This document shows positions 1-63,648 of a stretch of DNA of 64,000 nucleotides, in pieces; the stretch's first letter is position 1; each line of letters begins with the position of its first letter. This DNA is from Pseudomonadota bacterium (GTDB lineage Bacteria; Campylobacterota; Campylobacteria; Campylobacterales; Campylobacteraceae). The notes below the pieces were generated by a model. The model made no database searches. It was not told the origin of the DNA and saw nothing but the letters and a program-made list of their open reading frames with translations. Made by a program: the position numbers and the translations under genes. The stretch covers positions 16,037-80,036 of the forward strand of contig PDPI01000023.1 of NCBI GenBank assembly GCA_002746565.1, read 5' to 3'.

Positions 1-771
1 AGTGGAAAAGGTACTTTACAAGATCTCAAAAAAGCCTTTTACTGGACTAAAAAATCGGCAAAACAAGGCGATGTTGGTGCGCAATACAATCTAGGACTTA
101 TGTACAACAATGGAAAGGGCATTTTAAAAGATCCAAAAAAAGCCCTCTATTGGTATGAAAAATCAGCAAAACAAGGTGATGTTAAGGCGCAACATAATCT
201 AGCAATAATGTATCACAATGGAAGAGGTACTCTAAAAAATCTTAAAAAAGCATTTTATTGGTATGAAAAATCAGCAAAACAAGGTCACGCTAAGGCGCAA
301 AATAATTTAGGAATAATGTATCGCACAGGAGAAGGCACTTTAAAAGATTTTAAGAAGGCTTTTTATTGGACTAAAAAATCAGCTCAACAAGGTGACGCTA
401 CAGCACAAAACAATCTAGGAATAATGTACCTCACAGGAGAAGGTACTTTAAAAGATTTTAAAAAGGCTTTTTATTGGTATGAAAAGTCAGCTCAACAAGC
501 TCATCCTAGTGCACAATACAATTTAGGATTTATGTATCAAAATGGGAAAGGCACTTTAAAAGATTTTAAAAAGGCTTTTTATTGGTATGAAAAATCAGCA
601 AAACAAGGTGATGCTAGTGCACAATACAATCTAGGGATTATGTGTATTTATGGGGAGGGAACTTTAGTGGATAAAAAGCGGGCAGCTTATTGGATAGAGC
701 AAGCATATAAAAATAACTATCCAAAAGCCCAAAGAATCTGGAACAAATACGAACTTTGGAAATATAAATAA
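1..771 (+). CDS. Sel1-like (TPR-family) repeat protein; 5' end lies outside the window
   Basis: Frame 1 is open from nt 1. At least 7 tandem 36-aa units carry the Sel1 signature (GxGTLKDxKKAFYWYEKSAxQGxAxAQxNLGxMY). Stop codon at 769-771. Confidence 0.85.
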   Translation, partial: SGKGTLQDLKKAFYWTKKSAKQGDVGAQYNLGLMYNNGKGILKDPKKALYWYEKSAKQGDVKAQHNLAIMYHNGRGTLKNLKKAFYWYEKSAKQGHAKAQNNLGIMYRTGEGTLKDFKKAFYWTKKSAQQGDATAQNNLGIMYLTGEGTLKDFKKAFYWYEKSAQQAHPSAQYNLGFMYQNGKGTLKDFKKAFYWYEKSAKQGDASAQYNLGIMCIYGEGTLVDKKRAAYWIEQAYKNNYPKAQRIWNKYELWKYK

Positions 772-2505: not shown

Positions 2506-2570
2506 GGTATCTCTCCTTTGTAGGTGTTATTATAGCATTAATTGTTAAAAAATTAATCTAAAAAATATAG

Positions 2571-2687
2571 GGTACTGAATAAATAGAGATTTAGTCAGTA
2601 CCGAAAACGGATTACGAAAAACAGATAACTAGTAGGGTAGGCATTTTTTCAAAATGCTATTTATTTTTATGTTATTTAGTCGGTGCC
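2571..2687 (+). repeat. dispersed structured element, copy 1 (full length)
   Basis: Hairpin H1 GGTACTGAATAAAT-AGAG-ATTTAGTCAGTACC, 4 GAWWACN heptamers, H2 GGCATTTT-TTC-AAAATGCT, a T-rich tail and terminal GTCGGTGCC. Aligns with 6 other copies. Confidence 0.9.
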
Positions 2688-4046
2688 ATATGGGGTACTA
2701 ATTAAATCGTACACCAAAATAATATTTTCATCTTCTAACTCAAGCAAATCTTTCGTAAAACCGCTCTTGCTAAAAAGATAATACTTTTCAATGGGCAAAT
2801 CACTTTTTATAAATCTAGCCTTTTGTTTTAAGCTCTCTAAAATATCAAGTCCAACTTTTTTATTGCTATATTTACACTCGCCAACTATCAAAGAATTTTG
2901 AGTTATGCCTACTAGATCTATTTCATGGTCTTTATCCCACCATCGACCGCATTTTAGCACCTTAGAATTTTTCTTTACATATTCAATGGCTAGATTTTCA
3001 TACACAAAGGAGATATAGGAGCTAAAATTTTGTTTTATTATTTTAGTAACATAGTGTTTATTTTCCATCTCAAGCCATGTTTTGTAGGGCAAAACATAAC
3101 AAAACCAAAATCTAAAAAAATTATCCTTTATAAAATATAAACTTTTGCGGCTTTTTAGGGGATTTTTTTCGGTTATGGGAACATCCTTATAAACAAGATC
3201 AAGTTCAATTAGTTTATTGATATACGGGGATATGGCTTGAGTTGTTTTTTCAAGCCTACTTGCTATGTGGCTTAATTTGTGAGCACCACTGGCTATATTT
3301 TCTAGTATTGAAAAATACGTAATCTGCTCTGAAACTTCCCCTTGTAGGATAAATTGAGGCTCATTGTACAAAAAACTATTTACTTCAAGGATATTTTCCT
3401 CTATGCCTTTAAATATATCAGCTTTTTCTTTGAACATATTAAGATATTTTGGAACCCCATGGAGTACGCTGTAAAGCTCTATAAGTTCGATTTGGCTTTT
3501 GTTTGGAAAAAATTCATGTATATGTTCAAACTTTATAGCTTCGAGTTTTATGGAACTTGTTCGGCGTCCATATAGGGGCGAGTTATAAGATAGGGTTTGA
3601 TCATGCATCATGGATATAATAGACCCACAAAATATGAGGTGAATATTTTTATTTTCTAAAAATTCATCACATATGTATTGAAATTGGGATGGAATGGATG
3701 GATCTTGTTTGGCTAGATACTGAAATTCATCAATGGCTATAACTAGTTTTTTATCAAAACTTTTTGAACTAATATATCTAAAAAGTTGAGTAAAATTTTC
3801 AAACCTTATCTCTCTCAAGATTTCATCATCAAAATAATCAGCAAATATGCCCTGAAATCTCTTTAAAAGAATAGAGATATTTTCAAGACTTGCTAAAAAA
3901 TACAAAGATGGCTTATCTTTCATAAACTCTCTAAGAAGTGCAGTTTTACCAACCCTGCGCCTGCCATAAAGAATGGTAGATGTAAATTGATCTAAAGCAT
4001 ATTCGCTGTTTAAAATCCCCAATTCTTTTTGTCTATTTACAAACAA
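2676..4046 (-). CDS. AAA+ ATPase (archaeal-ATPase-like) with wHTH and a C-terminal DUF234/PD-(D/E)xK-like domain
   Basis: 456 aa. Walker A GRRRVGKT, Walker B LVIAIDEFQ, C-terminal HEIDLVG...VGECKYS. TTG start with AAGGAG 5 nt upstream. The last 3 codons and the stop lie inside repeat copy 1. Confidence 0.8.
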   Translation of the reverse strand: MFVNRQKELGILNSEYALDQFTSTILYGRRRVGKTALLREFMKDKPSLYFLASLENISILLKRFQGIFADYFDDEILREIRFENFTQLFRYISSKSFDKKLVIAIDEFQYLAKQDPSIPSQFQYICDEFLENKNIHLIFCGSIISMMHDQTLSYNSPLYGRRTSSIKLEAIKFEHIHEFFPNKSQIELIELYSVLHGVPKYLNMFKEKADIFKGIEENILEVNSFLYNEPQFILQGEVSEQITYFSILENIASGAHKLSHIASRLEKTTQAISPYINKLIELDLVYKDVPITEKNPLKSRKSLYFIKDNFFRFWFCYVLPYKTWLEMENKHYVTKIIKQNFSSYISFVYENLAIEYVKKNSKVLKCGRWWDKDHEIDLVGITQNSLIVGECKYSNKKVGLDILESLKQKARFIKSDLPIEKYYLFSKSGFTKDLLELEDENIILVYDLISTPYGTD

Positions 4047-4134
4047 GCTTGCTCCTTAAAATTTTATATAATTTAAATTAGTATAATTTAGATTATATAA
4101 AAAATATACTTAAAGAATATTTATGATCTTGATG

Positions 4135-4234
4135 GGCACTGACGAAATGGCATAAAAATAAATGGCATTTTGTAAAAATGCTTACTTTAACTAGCTATCT
4201 GTTTTCCGCTTTCCGTAATCCCTTTTCGGCACTG
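4135..4234 (-). repeat. dispersed structured element, copy 2 (short form lacking the 5' arm of H1)
   Basis: The reverse complement aligns from CAGTGCCGAAAAGGGATTACGG through GCATTTT-TAC-AAAATGC to GTCAGTGCC. Confidence 0.9.
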
Positions 4235-4258
4235 CTTTCTAAAAAATTAAGTTTTTTA

Positions 4259-4267
4259 TGATACAAT
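4259..4267 (+). promoter_or_regulatory. putative extended -10 promoter (TGaTACAAT) for the selenoprotein gene
   Basis: TG at 4259-4260 and TACAAT at 4262-4267, preceded by a T-rich stretch, about 28 nt upstream of the ATG at 4295. Confidence 0.4.
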
Positions 4268-4294
4268 CTTGCTTATTTTTAAAAAGGAGATTAC

Positions 4295-4522
4295 ATGAAG
4301 GTACTTATTACTTATTGTAATATGTGAAACTATTTGCCTCAAGCTTCCCGTGTGGAAGGAGAAATTAAGAGTGTATATAGTGATGCGGAAGTTTCGTTTG
4401 AGTTAGGAACTCGTGGGGATTTTATCGTTGAAATTGATGGGAAGGTTATCTTTTCAAAAAATGATGAGGATAAGCAAAGATTTCCATTTGAGAACGAAAT
4501 ACTAGAGCTTATGAAAAAATAA
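4295..4522 (+). CDS. SelW/Rdx-family selenoprotein with an in-frame UGA (Sec) at 4325-4327
   Basis: ATG at 4295 with AAGGAG at 4284-4289. Translation is MKVLITYCNM-U-NYLPQASRVEGE...GDFIVEIDGKVIFSK...RFPFENEILELMKK. The TGA sits at the second redox position of a CxxU motif, in frame with the track ORF 4334-4522. Confidence 0.8.
4338..4361 (+). promoter_or_regulatory. candidate bacterial SECIS hairpin
   Basis: CTC-(aag bulge)-CTTCC-[CGTGT loop]-GGAAG-GAG. The hairpin starts 10 nt after the UGA, and the apical loop, with G in its second position, begins 22 nt after the last nucleotide of the UGA. Confidence 0.6.
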
Positions 4523-4529
4523 AGCTTTC

Positions 4530-4566
4530 AAAAAGTGTTGCAAAAAGCGCAACACTTTTTTATTTT
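4530..4566. terminator. bidirectional intrinsic terminator between convergent genes
   Basis: AAAAAGTGTTGC-(aaaaagc)-GCAACACTTTTT followed by TTATTTTTT. There is a T-run after the stem on both strands. Confidence 0.7.
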
Positions 4567-5310
4567 TTAGTGGGATAAAATCTGATCTAAGAAAACTTGC
4601 AATCTTTCGGATTCTGGGTTTTCAAAAAATGCTTCTGGGGTGTTTTCTTCTACTATTTGCCCAGCATCCATAAAAATAATCCTATCGGCAACCTTTTTGG
4701 CAAAACCCATCTCATGGGTAACACAAATCATAGTTTTTCCACTTTTTGCAAGCTCAACCATAACATCTAAAACCTCACTTACCATTTCTGGATCAAGTGC
4801 GGAAGTTGGCTCATCAAAAAGCATTATCTTTGGATGCTTACAAAGGCTTCTTGCTATGGCAACACGTTGTTGTTGTCCGCCTGAGAGTTGATTTGGATAT
4901 TTGTTAGCTTGTTCAGCTATATTTACACGCTCTAGATATTCTAAGGCGGTTTTTTCTGCCTCTTTTCTTGGGGTTTTTTTAACCCAAATTGGCGAAAGGG
5001 TAAGGTTATCAAGTATGGTTAAATGGGGGAAAAGATTAAAATGCTGAAAAACCATGGCAACTTCTTCCCTTATGGCTTTTATTTTTTTGATATCATCATC
5101 AAGTTCAATGCCATCCACATTTATACTTCCCTCTTGAAATTCTTCAAGGCGGTTTATGCATCTAATAAGGGTTGATTTACCCGAACCAGATGGTCCGCAA
5201 ACAACGATAATCTCACCTTTTTTAACGTCCAGATCCACATCTTTTAAAACATGAAAATCCCCATACCATTTATTTAATTTTTTTATACTTATAATAGTTT
5301 CTTGTTCCAT
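4567..5310 (-). CDS. aapP: polar amino-acid ABC transporter, ATP-binding protein
   Basis: 247 aa. Walker [10 protein letters not shown], signature LSGGQQQR, Walker [12 protein letters not shown]. Confidence 0.9.
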
Positions 5311-5318
5311 TTTAATCC

Positions 5319-6404
5319 TTATTTTATATCCGTATTAAACTTATCTTCCAAGATTTTTGAATATCTTGACATAAGATAACAAAATAGCCAAAACACAAGG
5401 GCGACAAAAACATAACCCTCCGTTTCCATACCAAGCCAATTTTTATCGGCCGATGTGATACGAACCATGCCAAGCAAATCAAAAAGACCAACTATCAAAA
5501 CTAGGGTTGTATCTTGGAAAAGTGAGATGAAAATTCCCACTAGATTTGGTATGGCAACCTTCAAAGCTTGGGGCAAGATAACAAGTATCATTTTTTGCCA
5601 GTAAGAAAGTCCAACCGCATCAGCTGCTTCGTATTGTCCCTTTGGGATGGATTGGAGTCCGCCTCTTATAACTTCTGCTGTATAGGCTGCTTGGAAAAGA
5701 GTGATACCTATAACTGCTCTTAGTAATTTATCAAAGGTAATGCCCTCGGGAAAGAAAAGTGGCAAGATGATCGATGACATGAAAAGAATGGTAATGAGTG
5801 GCACTCCACGGATAAATTCCACGTAAGTTACACAAACGCTTTTTATGATGGGAAGTTTTGATTGGCGTCCAAAGGCTACGATAATGCCTATGGGAAAGGA
5901 AAATATTATGCCTGTTGCTGCAACTAGGATAGAGAGCATAAGTCCGCCCCATTTATCCGTTGGTACATATTCTAGTCCAAAAATTCCTCCTATGGTAAAA
6001 ATAGCTACGAGGATAAAATAAGCACTCAAAATGGCAAATTTAGCAAAATTATTTTTTATAAATTTAGATCCAAACACTATAATGATAAATAAAATCCCCA
6101 TAAGATTTATCCGCCATCTCTCATGTTCTGGATAAAATCCATACATGAACATATCTAATTTTTCTTTAACAAAGATCCAGCAAGCACCACTGCCCGTGCA
6201 TTGCTCCCTTGTTGTTCCACTAAAATTTGCATCTATAAAAGACCATTGAATGAAGGGTGGAATTATGAGATAAAGTATCCAAATGCCTAAAATAGTCAAA
6301 AATATATTCAAAGGCGAGGAAAAAAGATTTTGCCTTAACCATCCTAAAACTCCACTTCCGCCCTTTGGAGCTTGTCTAGCTTGTTTTTCTTCATATACTG
6401 CCAT
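5319..6404 (-). CDS. aapM: general L-amino-acid ABC transporter permease
   Basis: 361 aa polytopic protein with an EAA-type loop ([23 protein letters not shown]). Lies in an operon with the SBP and ATPase genes. Confidence 0.8.
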
Positions 6405-7558
6405 TATCGCTCCTTTATTTTTATTTTGCTATTGAACCAATTGAGTATGGCTGATACTACTAGACTTATAATCAGGTAAACTAGCATGGTAATTGCTATT
6501 ATTTCGATAGATTGCCCCACCTGGTTTAGGGAAGTCCCAGCAAAAACCGTTACAAGCTCAGGATAGCCCACTGCTGTTGCTAGGGATGAATTTTTTATAA
6601 GGTTTAAATATTGATTGATAATCGGAGGTATAGAAACTCTGATAGCCTGGGGCAAGATAACTAACTTTAAACTCTGATAAGCTGAAAGTCCAAGACTTGC
6701 TGCGGCTTCTTTTTGTCCTTTTTTTACAGCCTCTATGCCCGAGCGAACCGCTTCAGCAATAAAGGTTGCCGTATAGATAACAAGGGCAAAGGTTAGGGCT
6801 AAAAATTCAGGGGTTATTACCTTTCCACCCCTAAAGTTAAAGCCTTTAAGTTCAGGGTAACTAAACCCAAAATCTGCTCCACCGATAAAAAATGAAACAA
6901 TAGTAAAAACTAAAAAAACTCCTATGCTAGCTATTAGGGTTGGGAAGTATTGCCCTGTTTCTTCTTGTCTTTTTTTTGCCCATTTTGCCATAAAAAATAT
7001 AAATACAAAACTTAATAAAACTCCGCCAAGTAAGGCGTAGGTTGTGCTATTCCATGAAGCAAGTGGAATGTAAAGACCGCGATTGTTTATAAAAATAGCA
7101 TCGACAAAATTTACACTCTGCCTTGGGGATGGCAAAGATTGTATGACAACATTGTACCAAAATAAGATTTGTAACAAAAGCGGGATATTTCTAAAAATAT
7201 CTATATAAGCTGCTGCTAATTTTTTGATAAGAAAGTTCTTAGAAAGCCTTAAAACCCCTATGATTAAGCCTAAAATTGTGGCAAATAAGATGCCAACAAA
7301 GCTTACTATAAAGGTATTTAAAAGTCCAACCAAAAACACTCTTGCGTGGGTATGGGATTCGGAAAACTCTATGGGAGATTCGGTAATCCCAAAACCAGCG
7401 GTTCCTTCTAAAAACTCAAAACCTGTTTGTATGCCCCTTTGTTCTATATTGTGCAAAGTATTTATTCCAATATACCACAAAAAAGCAACTAAACCTATGA
7501 CAGTTAAAAGCTGGAAGAATATCGCTCTTGCTTTTTCATGCCTAAGAAAAGAAAACAT
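6404..7558 (-). CDS. aapQ: general L-amino-acid ABC transporter permease
   Basis: 384 aa polytopic protein with the motif ATFIAEAVRSGIEAVKKGQKEAA. Its stop and the aapM start share nt 6404. Confidence 0.8.
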   Translation of the reverse strand: MFSFLRHEKARAIFFQLLTVIGLVAFLWYIGINTLHNIEQRGIQTGFEFLEGTAGFGITESPIEFSESHTHARVFLVGLLNTFIVSFVGILFATILGLIIGVLRLSKNFLIKKLAAAYIDIFRNIPLLLQILFWYNVVIQSLPSPRQSVNFVDAIFINNRGLYIPLASWNSTTYALLGGVLLSFVFIFFMAKWAKKRQEETGQYFPTLIASIGVFLVFTIVSFFIGGADFGFSYPELKGFNFRGGKVITPEFLALTFALVIYTATFIAEAVRSGIEAVKKGQKEAAASLGLSAYQSLKLVILPQAIRVSIPPIINQYLNLIKNSSLATAVGYPELVTVFAGTSLNQVGQSIEIIAITMLVYLIISLVVSAILNWFNSKIKIKER

Positions 7559-7624
7559 TAATATAACCCTTTGTTGATTTTTTAAGATTGGGAAAAGGCG
7601 ACAAAAGTCGCCTTTGTAAGATTA

Positions 7625-8641
7625 TTATCTAAATGGAGGAGAGTATTGTAGACCGCCATCTTTCCAAAGGGCATTTAAGCCTCTTTCGATATTTAGTGGA
7701 GTATTTACACCAACATTTCTTTCAAAAACTTCGCCATAGTTACCAACCTGAGTAACTATATTGTAAGCCCAATCGGCACTTAAGCCTAGATTTGAACCCA
7801 TTTTTCCTTCAACTCCCAAAATTCTCTTGATAGTTGGATTTGAAGTTGATTTTTTAAGCTTGGCTGCATTTTTGCTTGTAATTCCAGCCTCTTCAGCCGC
7901 AACCATGGCAAAAAATGACCATCTTACTATATTGAACCATTGATCATCCCCTTGTCTTACAACTGGTCCTAAAGGCTCTTTTGAGATAATCTCAGGTAAA
8001 ACCATGTGTTTTTTAGGGTCTTTAAGCTTGGTTCTTAGTCCATAAAGCTGAGATGCATCAGAGGTTAAGATATCACATCTTCCATTTTCATAACTTTGTA
8101 CAACTTGATCGTTTGTATCATAGGTTACAGCTTTATATTTAAGGTTGTTTGCTCTAAAATAATCAGCAACATTTAGCTCAGTTGTAGTTCCTGTTTGGAT
8201 ACAAACAGATGCACCGCCAAGCTCTTTTGCACTTTTTACACCCAAATCTTTTCTTATCATGAAACCTTGACCATCGTAATAGTTTACTCCAGCAAAGTTA
8301 AGCCCTAAAGATGTATCTCTTGATTGGGTCCAAGTTGTATTTCTAACAAGCACATCAATCTCTCTAGATTGTAAAGCAGCTAATCTTTCCTTTGCGTTTA
8401 AGGCTACAAATTTTGTCTTTGTGGCATCTCCAAAAACAGCCGCCGCAACCGCGCGACATCCATCCACATCAATACCACTCCATTTTCCACCACTAGCAAC
8501 TTCAGAAAAACCTGGAAGTCCACCATCGGCTCCACACTTAACAAAACCTCTTTTTTTAACGTCATCTAAAGTACCAGCATTAGCAAGAGTACCAACTCCT
8601 AAGATAAGTAAAGCACCCAGTGCAAATCTTTTTAAATTCAT
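7625..8641 (-). CDS. aapJ: amino-acid ABC transporter periplasmic substrate-binding protein
   Basis: 338 aa with a signal peptide (MNLKRFALGALLILGVGTLANA) and an SBP family 3-like sequence. First gene of the aap operon. Confidence 0.8.
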   Translation of the reverse strand: MNLKRFALGALLILGVGTLANAGTLDDVKKRGFVKCGADGGLPGFSEVASGGKWSGIDVDGCRAVAAAVFGDATKTKFVALNAKERLAALQSREIDVLVRNTTWTQSRDTSLGLNFAGVNYYDGQGFMIRKDLGVKSAKELGGASVCIQTGTTTELNVADYFRANNLKYKAVTYDTNDQVVQSYENGRCDILTSDASQLYGLRTKLKDPKKHMVLPEIISKEPLGPVVRQGDDQWFNIVRWSFFAMVAAEEAGITSKNAAKLKKSTSNPTIKRILGVEGKMGSNLGLSADWAYNIVTQVGNYGEVFERNVGVNTPLNIERGLNALWKDGGLQYSPPFR

Positions 8642-10945: not shown

Positions 10946-11160
10946 GTCAACTCCTTTATTGGTTATTATACAATTATATTATAATAATTATAAGAAAAAG
11001 ATAAAATTATCTATGAAAAATCATGGATAAATCATTGAAATAATCCATATAAAATGAATAAAAAATATAAAATATAGCTTTAAAATTTACAACATATTTG
11101 GTATAAAAAATATAGAGAAGAAAAACTTTTATTAAAAGGTGAAAAATTTATTACATAAAG

Positions 11161-11274
11161 GGCGCTAAGTAAATAACATAAAAAGGCATTTTGTGAAAAT
11201 GCTTACCTTACTAGTTATCTGTTTTCTGTAATCCGTTTTCAGCATTGACCAAATCCCCACTTAGTCAGTGCCAT
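11161..11274 (-). mobile_element. dispersed structured element, copy 3 (full length, flanked by a perfect 6-bp direct repeat)
   Basis: The reverse complement reads AT-GGCACTGACTAAGT-GGGG-ATTTGGTCAATGCT, then 4 heptamers and GCATTTT-CAC-AAAATGC. ATAAAG occurs at 11155-11160 and again at 11275-11280. Confidence 0.85.
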
Positions 11275-23191: not shown

Positions 23192-23317
23192 ATGGCACTG
23201 ACTAAATGGGGATTTACTCAGTGCCGAAAACGGATTACAGATTACGGAAAACAGATAACTAGTAAGGTAAGCATTTTTTCAAAATGCCATTTATTTTTAT
23301 GTTATTTTGTCAGTGCC
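23192..23317 (+). mobile_element. dispersed structured element, copy 4 (archetype, full length)
   Basis: AT, then H1 at 23194-23225, 5 heptamers at 23226-23260, H2 at 23271-23287, a T-rich tail and GTCAGTGCC at 23309-23317. Flanked by TTCCCA (23186-23191) and TTCCAA (23318-23323). Confidence 0.9.
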
Positions 23318-39270: not shown

Positions 39271-39408
39271 TGCACTGGCTAAATGGGGATTTAGCCGGTG
39301 CTGAAAACGGAAAACAGATAACTAGTAAAGTAAGCATTTTTTCAAAATGCCATTTATTTTTATGTTATTTTGTCAGTGTGTAAGGATGGCACTAACTAAA
39401 TCAGTGCC
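39271..39408 (+). repeat. dispersed structured element, copy 5 (3 heptamers plus an extra 3' hairpin)
   Basis: H1 GCACTGGCTAAAT-GGGG-ATTTAGCCGGTGC (13 bp including one G.T), GAAAACG GAAAACA GATAACT, H2, T tail and GTCAGTG. An additional hairpin GGCACT-aactaaatc-AGTGCC lies at 39388-39408. Confidence 0.9.
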
Positions 39409-39437
39409 ATAAAGAGGACCTTTGTAAGCGTTCTAGA

Positions 39438-40805
39438 TCAAACAAAAAATTTATTTATCATAATCGCAAGTATGGAAATTGGAACCACGAATCGAATAAG
39501 AAATAACCATATATTAAAAAGTTTTTCTCCCATAAATTCTACGAGTAAGCCTTTAAGTTGTCCCTTATCCATCACAAATCCCACAAAAATACTTATCAAA
39601 ATTCCACCTATTGGCATAAGTATCATGGATGTGAGCTTATCTAGGATGTCAAAAAATCCTGTTCCAAAATATGTAACATACTCTTTTACTCCCTCCACAT
39701 TGGATAAAAGTGCCATTATGCCTAAAACATAAATAACAAAACCAACTATGCTAAGGGATTTTAACCTTGTATATTTTAACTTATTTTCCATAAAAGCTAT
39801 GCTTGGCTCTATCATGGAAATTGCCGAAGTAATTCCCGCAAATGCAAGGGCAATAAATAGCAATAAACTAAGGATATTGCCTAAAATTCCCATATCGCTA
39901 AATAAAGAAGGAAGGGTAACAAATATAAGTCCAGCTCCCTCACTTGGCTTTAGGCCATAGTGAAAGGTAAAGGAAAATATCATAATCCCAGCAATCAAAG
40001 CTATAAGAGTATCAAGACCAGCAACCATCACTGAAGACTTAAATAGATTATCCCTCTCGGGCAAAGCTGAAGCATAAGTCATGATGGTTCCAACACCCAA
40101 ACTAAGGGTAAAAAAGGCTTGACCAACGGCTGCTAAAACAGAATCCGCACTCAATTTTGAAAAATCTGGAACAAATAAAAAGCTTACAGCTTTGCCAAAA
40201 CCATCTAAGCTCATAGCATAGAGCATAAGTCCAAAGAGTATGACAAAAAGCATGGGCATAAGAATGATATTTGCCTTTTCAATTCCTTGTATAAGTCCAC
40301 GGGAAACAATAAAAAACGTCATGGCAAAGGCGATGGTAAAATATATAATCTGATCGCAAGCTTGACTTGTTATCATACCCCCAAACATAGCCCCTGCATC
40401 TTGAGAATTTGTGGGTAAAGTCGAAAATGATACTACTATATATTTTAAAAGCCAACCCATAACGATAGTATAAAAAGAAACTATTAAAACTGGAATAATG
40501 ATAATAAAACCAGCAAATTTCCAAGCCTTTTGTCCACTTGGAGCTAGATCAGTAAAAGCTGATACTGGATCTTTTCTGCTAAGTCTTCCCATGGCAACTT
40601 CTGCTAAAAATAAGGTTACACCAATTCCCAAAATGGTAAGAAGATAAACCATAACAAAGGCACCACCACCATTTGAACCTGTCATGTATGGAAATTTCCA
40701 TACATTTCCCAAACCAACAGCACTTCCGGCGGCTGCTAGTATAAAGCCAACACGACTAAATCTGCCTAATTGCATAATCTTCCTTAATAAAAAAATAAAT
40801 AGCAT
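39438..40805 (-). CDS. sodium-dependent transporter (SNF/NSS family)
   Basis: GFILAAAGSAVGLGNVWKFPY signature. The probable true start is Met11 (nt 40775). Confidence 0.9.
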   Translation of the reverse strand: MLFIFLLRKIMQLGRFSRVGFILAAAGSAVGLGNVWKFPYMTGSNGGGAFVMVYLLTILGIGVTLFLAEVAMGRLSRKDPVSAFTDLAPSGQKAWKFAGFIIIIPVLIVSFYTIVMGWLLKYIVVSFSTLPTNSQDAGAMFGGMITSQACDQIIYFTIAFAMTFFIVSRGLIQGIEKANIILMPMLFVILFGLMLYAMSLDGFGKAVSFLFVPDFSKLSADSVLAAVGQAFFTLSLGVGTIMTYASALPERDNLFKSSVMVAGLDTLIALIAGIMIFSFTFHYGLKPSEGAGLIFVTLPSLFSDMGILGNILSLLLFIALAFAGITSAISMIEPSIAFMENKLKYTRLKSLSIVGFVIYVLGIMALLSNVEGVKEYVTYFGTGFFDILDKLTSMILMPIGGILISIFVGFVMDKGQLKGLLVEFMGEKLFNIWLFLIRFVVPISILAIMINKFFV

Positions 40806-40909
40806 TATACTATTAAATAATAACTTAGATTTTACTTTTTTGGATAATCATTATCCAAATATAAAGAAAAATAAGTTACAATTAGATACAAAAACGCTAA
40901 AGGAAAGTA

Positions 40910-41767
40910 ATGGCAACGGGAATTTTTGTACTATTTGATGATATAGCACTATTGGCTGATGATGTGGCACTAACAGCAAAAATGGCAACTAAGAAAACAG
41001 CGGCTATTTTAGGGGACGATCTGGCTGTAAATGCTGAAAAAGCGACGGGTTTTAGCCAAGATAAGGAACTTAAAGTCATTTGGGCGATAACCAAAGGATC
41101 GCTACTAAATAAGATCATTATCCTACCCTTTACCTTTATTTTAAATTATTTTGCTTCATGGGCGATTTCCATAGCTTTGATATGTGGAGGATTGTACCTT
41201 TTGTATGAGGGGGCTGAAAAGATTTATGAGGTTTTATTTCACAAAAGCGAAGATGAAGAGCATAAAAAGCAGTTGCAAAGTTCCACAAGTCAAAACGTCC
41301 TTGATCTAGAAAAAAAGAAGATAAGAAGCGCTATATTTACGGATTTTATCCTATCTATAGAGATAGTTGTTATAGCATTAAGCTCGGTATCAAGTCAGAG
41401 TTTGCTTGTCCAAATCCTAAGCACATCCTTTGTAGCCCTAATAGCAACGGTTGGAGTTTATGGTCTAGTTGCGCTTATCATAAGGTTGGACAATGTGGGA
41501 TTTTGGTTCATAAAAAAGGGTCACCCAAAAACAGGTCAAGCCTTTGTGGATTTCATGCCCCTTTTAATACGCACTTTAGGCGTCATAGGAACCATAGCCA
41601 TGTTTTTAGTTGGCGGAGGCATTTTAGCTCACAATATAGAATACTTCCACCACTTTTTCATAGCGGGCATACCTAGCATCCTAAATGAACTCCTAATCGG
41701 CATAGTCATAGGAATTTTTGTTTTGGCAATGGTCATGGCGTTTAAAAAACTATTTTTAAAATCATAA
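40910..41767 (+). CDS. DUF808 (YedI-like) inner-membrane protein
   Basis: 285 aa. N-terminal LFDDIALLADDVALTAKMATKKTAAILGDDLAVNAEK is typical of DUF808. Confidence 0.8.
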   Translation: MATGIFVLFDDIALLADDVALTAKMATKKTAAILGDDLAVNAEKATGFSQDKELKVIWAITKGSLLNKIIILPFTFILNYFASWAISIALICGGLYLLYEGAEKIYEVLFHKSEDEEHKKQLQSSTSQNVLDLEKKKIRSAIFTDFILSIEIVVIALSSVSSQSLLVQILSTSFVALIATVGVYGLVALIIRLDNVGFWFIKKGHPKTGQAFVDFMPLLIRTLGVIGTIAMFLVGGGILAHNIEYFHHFFIAGIPSILNELLIGIVIGIFVLAMVMAFKKLFLKS

Positions 41768-41824
41768 ATTTACTAGATCTAATCACCCATACCATTTTTC
41801 AGTTCTCCGTGATCCGAAATCTGA

Positions 41825-41922
41825 GGCACTGATAAAATAACATAAAAATAAATGGCATTTTGAAAAAATGCTTACTCTACTAGTTATCTGTTTTCTGTAA
41901 TCTGTAATCCGTTTTCGGCACT
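41825..41922 (-). repeat. dispersed structured element, copy 6 (short form lacking the 5' arm of H1)
   Basis: The reverse complement reads AGTGCC-GAAAACG GATTACA GATTACA GAAAACA GATAACT, then GCATTTT-TTC-AAAATGC and ATCAGTGCC. Confidence 0.9.
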
Positions 41923-42027
41923 TAATCATAATTTAACCAACATTCATGTAAAATTCTCTCATCAAAGTGATAAGTAGGGATACGCAAGCCGAACGGACTT
42001 TGAGATAAACAAATTTAGGAGGTTTTT

Positions 42028-63497: not shown

Positions 63498-63550
63498 AAT
63501 TTATTCCTTTTATACTATCGTAGTTTATTATATCCTTTTTTATTAAATAT

Positions 63551-63648
63551 GATATAAATAGATGGCATTTTGAAAAAATGCCTACCCTACTAGTCATCCG
63601 TTTTCAGTAATCCGTAATCCGTTTTCAGCACTGACCTCAGTCAGTGCC
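63551..63648 (-). repeat. dispersed structured element, copy 7 (short H1, 3' end degenerate)
   Basis: The reverse complement reads AT-GGCACTGAC-TGAG-GTCAGTGCT, then GAAAACG GATTACG GATTACT GAAAACG GATGACT, then GGCATTTT-TTC-AAAATGCC. The terminal GTCAGTGCC is missing. Confidence 0.85.

Follow-up and report, generated by a model that had tools for sequence, protein, structure and literature searches.

A 64,000-nt stretch of contig PDPI01000023.1 (positions 16,037 to 80,036, forward strand; assembly GCA_002746565.1), referred to here as the window, carries near its left end a single minus-strand gene between two inverted copies of a short repeat. The gene is predicted to encode a 456-residue ATPase fused to a nuclease-like domain (hereafter the ATPase gene), and the repeats are miniature inverted-repeat transposable elements (MITEs), here copies A and B. 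We favour, with moderate confidence, the reading that a phage defence candidate (PDC) gene of the PDC-S27 type was acquired horizontally into the former spacer between a DJ-1/PfpI gene and a selenoprotein gene (selW), and that the two MITE copies flanking it most likely arrived separately. A defence role for this gene is plausible.

The lineage is poorly sampled, and relatives of the locus were sought via two nearby genes, an ABC-transporter permease and GluQRS. The permease led to 43 loci in GTDB species genomes, with at most 74% identity for the permease itself and up to 88% for neighbouring operon proteins; in these loci the operon is conserved, there is no synteny beyond it, and they give no presence/absence information on the ATPase gene. 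The nearest GluQRS proteins are 68-73% identical and lie on short contigs. One relative, L054 (contig PDWI01045360.1), has the neighbourhood of interest, while the other GluQRS relatives (L055-L059) either have no DJ-1/selW neighbourhood or are too short. In the orientation of the window, L054 carries genes for elongation factor P (EF-P; 94% identical), the selW/Rdx protein (63%), DJ-1, an RNA recognition motif (RRM) protein (84%) and GluQRS (67%-70%). Its selW and DJ-1 genes are divergent and separated by a 101-nt spacer, which shares the TATGATACAAT box upstream of selW and contains neither the ATPase gene nor a MITE. Relative to this spacer, the window has about 1,665 bp of extra DNA, consisting of MITE A, the ATPase gene, its 88-nt upstream region and MITE B. 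The first-pass annotation of the window, made from the sequence alone, had proposed a presence/absence comparison of the block at 2.5-4.3 kb; the empty selW|DJ-1 site supports its view of an accessory gene. Because homologs of the ATPase gene occupy a different place in every genome examined, a gain in the window lineage would be more parsimonious than a loss in L054.

Seven MITE copies were found in the window, and they align to a consensus of about 125 nt (element length 103-138 nt). From its 5' end, the consensus contains GGCACTGAC, a loop and GTCAGTGCC (the H1 hairpin), one to three GGATTAC-like heptamers, GAAAACAGATAACTAGTA, the AGCATTTTTTCAAAATGC hairpin (H2), a T-rich stretch and a terminal GTCAGTGCC. 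The 9-bp terminal inverted repeats (TIRs) are GGCACTGAC/GTCAGTGCC, and GTCAGTGCC is essentially confined to MITE copies. The H2 motif, which is palindromic, occurs at seven window sites (13 strand matches vs 0.47 expected by chance). An exact 28-nt core pattern recovered 19 further loci (L060-L078), all in the metagenome assembly PDWI01 (GCA_002754915.1), on contigs of the same GC content of about 35%. The element was not found in 52 other Campylobacterota loci, including all those carrying homologs of the ATPase gene, and no Rfam family matches it at gathering thresholds. Direct repeats of 8 bp abut the termini in seven of the 14 full-length copies (at least 7/8 match), being exact in three (TAACTTAA, TTAAATTA and TATTAATT); the other half have no clean duplication. 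The five window copies other than A and B adjoin genes for a Na/sulfate symporter and serA, TctC and HIT, DctQ and an SNF symporter, DUF808 and atpE, and argF and hemB, and the orientation of the MITE relative to its neighbours is inconsistent across all seven. This is a MITE family with 9-bp TIRs and an 8-bp target duplication, abundant and lineage-specific, which inserts into AT-rich intergenic DNA throughout the genome.

The Correia elements of Neisseria are bacterial MITEs with which the window repeats can be compared. Like these, the window repeats are non-coding and only about 120 nt long, occur in many copies, are rich in hairpins and carry both TIRs and target duplications; they are intergenic and sometimes fused to the ends of open reading frames (ORFs). 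However, their sequence is unrelated, their duplication is 8 bp, and they are found only in this lineage and the PDWI01 metagenome.

Around the ATPase gene, copies A and B form inverted arms of 51 nt (2637-2687/4135-4185, 86% complementary) and 27 nt (2607-2633/4190-4216, 81% complementary). Arm alignment and consensus agree with the earlier description of a gene enclosed by inverted element copies, with the 3' ends (H2, T-rich stretch, GTCAGTGCC) of both pointing at it. The outer end of copy A matches the TIR consensus at 7/9 positions, and copy B resembles copy F in that its outer arm is missing or decayed. On the minus strand, the terminal GTCGGTGCC of copy A reads GGC ACC GAC TAA, which supplies the last three codons (G-T-D) and the stop codon of the ATPase gene. 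Since these codons lie in copy A, the MITE adjoins, or has taken the place of, the natural end of the gene. Inward from copy A, a further 25 nt or so resemble an extra hairpin found after copy E, and the entire 11-residue C-terminal tail of the protein may be derived from the MITE (the region concerned is window 2676-2714). The selW|DJ-1 locus is of interest both for its clean gain/loss comparison and as a case of a dense MITE family reshaping gene ends by supplying a stop codon. Coordinates are collected in Table 1.

Table 1. Features of the ATPase gene, its flanks and the MITE copies in the window
Feature	Position	Strand	Description
Native intergenic DNA, DJ-1 side	2506..2570		65 nt; DJ-1 ribosome-binding site (RBS) and promoter; matches left ~66 nt of L054 spacer
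11-nt direct repeat, left	2546..2556	+	TAAAAAATTAA; outer flank, 14 nt outside copy A
MITE copy A	2571..2687	+	Full length, with TIRs GGTACTGAA...GTCGGTGCC; own 8-bp target duplication absent (4/8 match)
ATPase-nuclease gene	2676..4046	-	Intact, 456 aa; PF01637 ATPase, winged helix and DUF234 PD-(D/E)xK; PADLOC PDC-S27 type
PD-(D/E)xK nuclease domain (predicted)	2712..3059	-	Residues ~330-445; helix with E350; strands with D377 and E390-x-K392
Winged-helix-like region	3129..3320	-	Residues ~243-306; three helices then beta hairpin in predicted model
Walker B LVIAIDEFQ	3720..3746	-	Residues 101-109; D106, E107, F108 and Q109 invariant in 30 homologs
Walker A GRRRVGKT	3942..3965	-	Residues 28-35; G28, R29-R31, G33, K34 and T35 invariant in 30 homologs
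ATPase gene 5' region	4047..4134	-	RBS AAGGAG 4052-4057; candidate -10 TATAAT 4092-4097; T-rich upstream stretch
MITE copy B	4135..4235	-	Inner 3' TIR GTCAGTGCC intact at 4135-4143; outer 5' hairpin arm degenerate/missing
Native intergenic DNA, selW side	4236..4294		59 nt; includes conserved TATGATACAAT promoter box and RBS
11-nt direct repeat, right	4240..4250	+	TAAAAAATTAA; 4 nt outside copy B
MITE copies in window	2571-2687, 4135-4235, ~11160-11272, 23194-23317, ~39271-39408, ~41825-41925, ~63550-63648		7 copies, all intergenic

In the order of events that we infer, the ATPase gene would have been acquired horizontally into a formerly ~100-nt divergent promoter spacer between DJ-1 and selW. 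Copies A and B would have arrived separately, copy A landing in the extreme 3' end of the gene, so that the ORF now ends inside it. We asked how often such a bracket would arise if seven MITE copies were placed at random in the 23-41 intergenic regions with room for one. A bracket formed around at least one single gene in 55-78% of placements, and one with both 3' ends inward in 17-28%. The bracket is thus expected by chance, and the arrangement alone is not evidence of a unit; it is probably coincidental.

The ATPase gene itself is as the first-pass annotation described it, a minus-strand gene of 456 codons with an AAGGAG RBS, a TTG start and a T-rich/TATAAT region upstream. The TTG codon (4044-4046) follows the RBS by five bases, and is credible as a start because all homologs begin MF.NR at the same position. 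Pfam places PF01637 (ATPase_2) at residues 2-204 (87.3 bits vs a cut-off of 33.2, E 1.7e-24) and PF03008 (DUF234) at residues 314-395 (68.5 bits vs 22.5, E 7e-19). Both are above their gathering scores, with PF01637 N-terminal to PF03008, a COG1672-type architecture. The Walker motifs, the HEIDLVG...GECKYS block (residues 374-380 and 389-394) and the winged helix-turn-helix (wHTH)-like middle region were also found where they had been placed earlier, the winged helix being seen in the predicted model. Both AAA+ signatures, GxxxxGK[ST] and hhhhDE, are present and conserved in the family. Across an alignment of 30 homologs the invariant positions include the Walker A and B residues, two YGRR motifs, E350, E375, D377, E390, C391 and K392. 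The protein is full length; homology stops after '...ILV', and short variable tails follow in all family members.

An AlphaFold2 model of the full protein, with the 30-sequence alignment as input, has a mean pLDDT confidence score of 81.7, and a separate model of residues 300-456 reaches 82. The best PDB matches of the full model (Foldseek) are two 'archaeal ATPase' structures, 2qen (E 1e-10) and 2fna (E 5e-8), followed by dozens of ORC/Cdc6 chains (E 3e-7 to 1e-5) and, lower down, a plant nucleotide-binding leucine-rich repeat protein (NLR). Because the whole model matches these structures, the N-terminal two thirds of the protein are, as modelled, an ORC/Cdc6-like AAA+ module with a winged helix. 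The two archaeal proteins (PABY2304 and SSO1545, respectively), both PF01637 structures, are the top matches by sequence (E 9e-9) as well as by structure for this AAA+/winged-helix part. However, they are only about 350 aa long, and their matches are limited to the N-terminal ATPase part (sequence match at residues 14-206) with no cover of DUF234.

For the C-terminal domain, the model shows an alpha-beta-beta-beta-alpha-beta core (H330-360, E365-370, E375-381, E386-392, H400-410 and E419-426, where H is helix and E strand). Its PDB neighbours have weak scores (E 2e-3 to 0.25, template modelling (TM) score 0.3-0.47), and nearly all are PD-(D/E)xK nucleases. Among them are AF1548, MspJI, NucS/EndoMS, VC1899, Can2, Bax1, AspBHI, Cdn1, McrC, HamA, LmuA, Avs4 and Hjc. 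The catalytic layout is canonical: the first helix bears E350, strand 2 bears D377 and strand 3 bears E390-C-K392, and these residues are all invariant. Sequence searches of the PDB with this domain, as a single sequence and as a profile, gave no meaningful match. In the model, the domain adopts a PD-(D/E)xK nuclease fold and keeps the catalytic signature intact. The structure prediction, which the first-pass annotation had recommended, thus bears out its remark that the E-x-D...E-x-K spacing resembles such nucleases. DUF234 (PF03008) has also been placed in the PD-(D/E)XK superfamily, as family 76 (Steczkiewicz et al. 2012, PMC3424549).

The family to which the protein belongs is very large. 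A word-indexed search found 7,957 proteins at E<=1e-10, and in an exhaustive search of 50%-identity representatives 7,352 clusters passed E<=1e-3 and 1,283 passed E<=1e-30, almost all of them full-length; members are mostly 445-480 aa long. The best relatives (447-463 aa) are only 67% identical and belong to Sulfurovum, Sulfurimonas, Campylobacter, Sulfurospirillum and Arcobacteraceae. IMG/VR contigs carry seven distant relatives at 38-43% identity, mostly close to contig ends. No NCBIfam family matches the protein, but two PADLOC models of PDC-S27 do (PDLC04984, E 1e-41 over residues 2-397, and PDLC04985, E 2e-30). The PDC-S01 (E 1e-9) and CARF-PD-(D/E)xK models match far more weakly. The PDCs are 145 candidates drawn from genes embedded in BREX, DISARM and type I restriction-modification (RM) systems (Payne et al. 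2024, 10.1101/2024.01.29.577857). PDC-S27 is an ATPase fused to PD-(D/E)xK, very common in archaea and bacteria, for which validation is pending (PMC12988326; 10.1101/2025.11.08.687337); it occurs in 71% of Halobacteria genomes (10.1101/2025.11.08.687337). Judged by sequence, the window gene is a divergent PDC-S27 member, at most 67% identical to anything known. The hidden Markov model match is near full length and the same ATPase and PD-(D/E)xK fusion is present, although the window copy is neither inside nor beside a BREX, DISARM or RM system.

PDC-S01 (AAA_14 and DUF4143) also joins a P-loop ATPase to a PD-(D/E)xK-type domain, and there is a weak cross-match, but the Pfam families differ and its best score is far below that of PDC-S27. 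Avs4, Hachiman HamA, Lamassu LmuA and McrBC likewise couple an NTPase to a PD-(D/E)xK effector, and appear as weak structural neighbours (8dgf, 8zue, 9nxx and 6hz4). A likeness to signal transduction ATPases with numerous domains (STAND) of the Avs type lies in the plant NLR among the matches to the ATPase part. However, the window protein differs from the STAND/Avs, Hachiman, Lamassu and McrBC proteins in having no tetratricopeptide repeat (TPR) or large sensor, a C-terminal nuclease, only 456 residues and an ORC/Cdc6-like ATPase, and we do not claim membership of any of them. PDC-S27 is among the most prevalent candidate defence families, and the window gene, as a compact single-gene ATPase-nuclease, would be easy to assay.

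The first-pass annotation had also proposed looking for defence-island enrichment around homologs, and here the outcome was mixed. In Sulfurimonas sp. NW15 (L009; CP093237.1, 1032240-1049595), the homolog lies in a defence island with an AbiE-like gene, a PDC-S01 gene (AAA_14 and DUF4143) 5 kb away, a HerA-like ATPase, a type II restriction endonuclease-like gene (AAA_5), a DdmD-like helicase and several large unannotated proteins. The homolog in L002 lies 165 nt downstream of tRNA-Pro; a PLD/DrmC-like nuclease gene comes next, and cobalamin genes are nearby. In L007 it sits in an island that also holds two integrase-type genes as well as a fragment of a DUF4158 transposase, with no clear defence match, and in L004 between an OprD porin gene and a five-tRNA cluster, with no defence neighbours. 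No flanking inverted or terminal repeats and no copies of the window MITE were found at the homolog loci. From these contexts, the ATPase-DUF234 family behaves as an accessory gene that is mobile and frequently, though not invariably, found close to hot spots of defence or integration.

These four loci have no common sequence beyond about 55 nt upstream of the ATG. A 31-bp near-perfect palindrome, TCGTTTTGATATTAT-T-ATAATATAAAAACGA, is conserved upstream of four homologs, overlapping the -10 box at about -55 to -20 from the ATG (in L002, in the 7935-7985 region). It is a candidate operator and may serve autoregulation by way of the winged helix. The palindrome is absent upstream of the window ATPase gene, whose 5' region differs and whose RBS is stronger, and which starts at TTG.

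From its domains and conserved residues, the protein is likely an ATP-controlled nuclease acting on foreign or cellular DNA. In a defence role, the wHTH and ATPase module would bind a nucleic-acid or protein cue from the invader, and ATP-dependent oligomerisation or remodelling would follow. The fused Mg-dependent PD-(D/E)xK nuclease would then be licensed to cut DNA, with restriction-like or abortive-infection-type defence as the outcome. The role, the trigger and the substrate in this scheme are those that we infer. The earlier suggestion of a surveillance or defence function is therefore reasonable and plausible, but it is not new, as the protein falls within an existing, still unproven, PADLOC classification.

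Several observations weigh against the reading proposed here. L054 is the sole informative relative, and a distant one. The composition of the ATPase gene is typical for the genome (GC 31.3%, z -1.3; GC at third codon positions 27%, z -0.5; codon-usage distance rank 52nd of 54 genes), so compositional foreignness was rejected and nothing in the composition speaks for a recent transfer, which points either to a long-standing resident or to a donor of similar composition. No defence island is found among the neighbours in the window, which are DJ-1, selW, an ABC transporter, the RRM protein and GluQRS. High family prevalence, together with about 65% identity across Campylobacterota genera, would also fit a role other than defence. 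As for the MITEs, the limits of the extra block match their outer ends within ~20 nt, which is the resolution of diverged AT-rich spacers, copy A has no target duplication of its own, and an 11-nt repeat is found in the outer flanks. These three features fit insertion as a unit better than two independent hits.

A cellular role, as in DNA repair or recombination or as a chromatin-associated ORC-like factor, would turn the empty site into a loss in L054. Family size, identity across genera and typical codon usage would all be in keeping with it, as would the repair nucleases NucS/EndoMS and Bax1 among the structural neighbours and the two of four homolog contexts without recognisable defence neighbours. 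Against this, homologs occur at a different locus in every genome examined, often beside tRNA genes, integrases or defence genes. They are also absent, bar distant matches, from the 43 related Campylobacterota loci around the syntenic ABC operon, and the PADLOC models of PDC-S27 were built from genes embedded in BREX, DISARM or type I RM systems. We consider a cellular role distinctly improbable.

The MITEs could instead belong to a cassette. Copy A, the gene and copy B would then have moved into the DJ-1|selW spacer as a unit, leaving a 10-11-nt repeat, and could have done so through a transposase acting in trans on the outer ends or through recombination with the MITEs as portable homology. 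Besides the empty site in L054 and the coincidence of the extra DNA with the outer MITE ends, this would account for copy A having only a 4/8 match as duplication, whereas half of the full-length copies have one. It would also account for the 11-nt direct repeat TAAAAAATTAA, which is shared by the 30-nt outer flanks (P 0.002 against random intergenic 30-mer pairs and 0.005 against shuffles, in a post hoc test in A-rich DNA); an overlapping 10-mer, TCTAAAAAAT, is common to both flanks at 2557-2566 and 4238-4247. A second +/- pair of copies, E and F, likewise brackets two genes (39438-41767). However, the repeat is 10-11 nt rather than 8 nt long and lies 14 and 4 nt off the MITE ends, and the outer ends of the unit have no matching 8-bp duplication (AAATATAG vs TTTCTAAA). 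Half of all full-length copies likewise have no clean duplication, and a bracket of this kind is to be expected by chance. The cargo gene does have a copy of one element on either side, but a functional TIR is not present at both outer termini, copy B having none at its outer end.

Nor are A and B sister copies. They are 86% identical over their shared ~105 nt, compared with a family mean of 82.5%, and rank only 15th and 10th in mutual similarity among 27 MITE copies; the nearest relative of copy A is a copy in L070 (95%), and that of copy B a copy in L071 (91%). The A-gene-B unit is a single occurrence, with no second one in the databases searched and no other copy of the ATPase gene near the 19 other MITE loci. 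Exact look-ups of the ATPase and RRM proteins returned only short Logan contigs of sample SRR6011893, which break at repeats. Taken together, we regard movement as a unit as unlikely. Of the earlier idea that the gene is cargo of a composite element, the accessory gene stands, but the composite unit is not established, given that A and B are no closer than random family members, the outer terminus of B is degenerate and there is no 8-bp duplication around the unit.

Integron mobilisation units flanked by two MITEs are an example of MITE-bracketed mobilisation. The window locus resembles such units and composite transposons in its two inverted non-autonomous copies around a cargo gene absent in L054. 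It differs in having no unit duplication of the family length, a degenerate outer end, divergent copies and a single occurrence. Should a cassette nonetheless be involved, the MITE family would be a vehicle trafficking defence genes in a Campylobacterota lineage of which little has been sampled; on present evidence, coincidence is the favoured reading. Two further arrangements were considered and rejected. The ATPase gene is not the autonomous parent of the MITE, as A and B are complete copies rather than half-ends and the homologs have no flanking repeats or MITE. An inversion between A and B that swapped target duplications was also discarded, as the flanks, compared by eye, match in no combination.

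The first-pass annotation further imagined terminator-like modules facing the gene from both sides, and one could extend this to MITEs acting as terminators or insulators, selected to isolate the ATPase gene transcriptionally. A consensus terminator scan did not support the idea, calling nothing in copy A or B; its sole call was a bidirectional hairpin at 4530-4560, between selW and the ABC ATPase gene. The one terminator-like element is in copy A on the strand of the ATPase gene, where the H1 hairpin (an 8-bp stem and an inner stem; fold z -2.9) is followed, after a gap of 3 nt, by UAUAUUUUUU, which belongs to the native flank. This combination may end the ATPase transcript about 105 nt after the stop codon, as an incidental feature and not a designed insulator pair. 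H2 has two G-C pairs and is too A/T-rich to qualify, and copy B folds no better than shuffled sequences do (z -1.05 and -0.5). On the strands where the H2/T-tract modules point at the ATPase gene, the A side has no upstream gene whose transcripts they could terminate, and the inconsistent orientation of the seven copies relative to neighbouring genes also speaks against selected insulators. We consider such a function very unlikely.

Both immediate neighbours of the ATPase gene are as first described, a frameshifted DJ-1 gene and a selenoprotein gene. DJ-1/PfpI (1964-2505) is split over two frames at an A-run, AAAAAGAAAAAAT, at about 2186-2211, and its L054 counterpart is intact (179 aa). The split gene could be a real pseudogene, a case of phase variation prone to slippage or an assembly error in the homopolymer; the 97-aa N-terminal DJ-1 ORF of the window recurs in an independent Logan contig. 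The selW/Rdx-family gene (4295-4522) has an in-frame TGA (C-x-x-U) in a C-N-M-U motif, and L054 keeps the TGA (C-N-S-U). ORF callers give only the part after the TGA. A second indel separates the two genomes beyond selW, where the four-gene amino-acid ABC transporter operon of the window (4567-8641) is absent in L054 and EF-P directly adjoins selW.

Other MITE copies have features of their own. Copy E carries an extra stand-alone hairpin, GGCACTAACTAAATCAGTGCC. The pair E and F (39271-41925), also +/- with 3' ends inward, brackets an SNF-family sodium symporter gene (39438-40805) and a DUF808 gene (40910-41767). In L069 (2067-4743), two copies in -,+ orientation lie 2.6 kb apart and enclose LysE, a HepT/nucleotidyltransferase pair (HEPN-MNT toxin-antitoxin-like) and AhpC. 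At the left edge of the window (4-771), a Sel1-repeat protein gene contains five to six 108-nt tandem repeats that are 70-79% identical.

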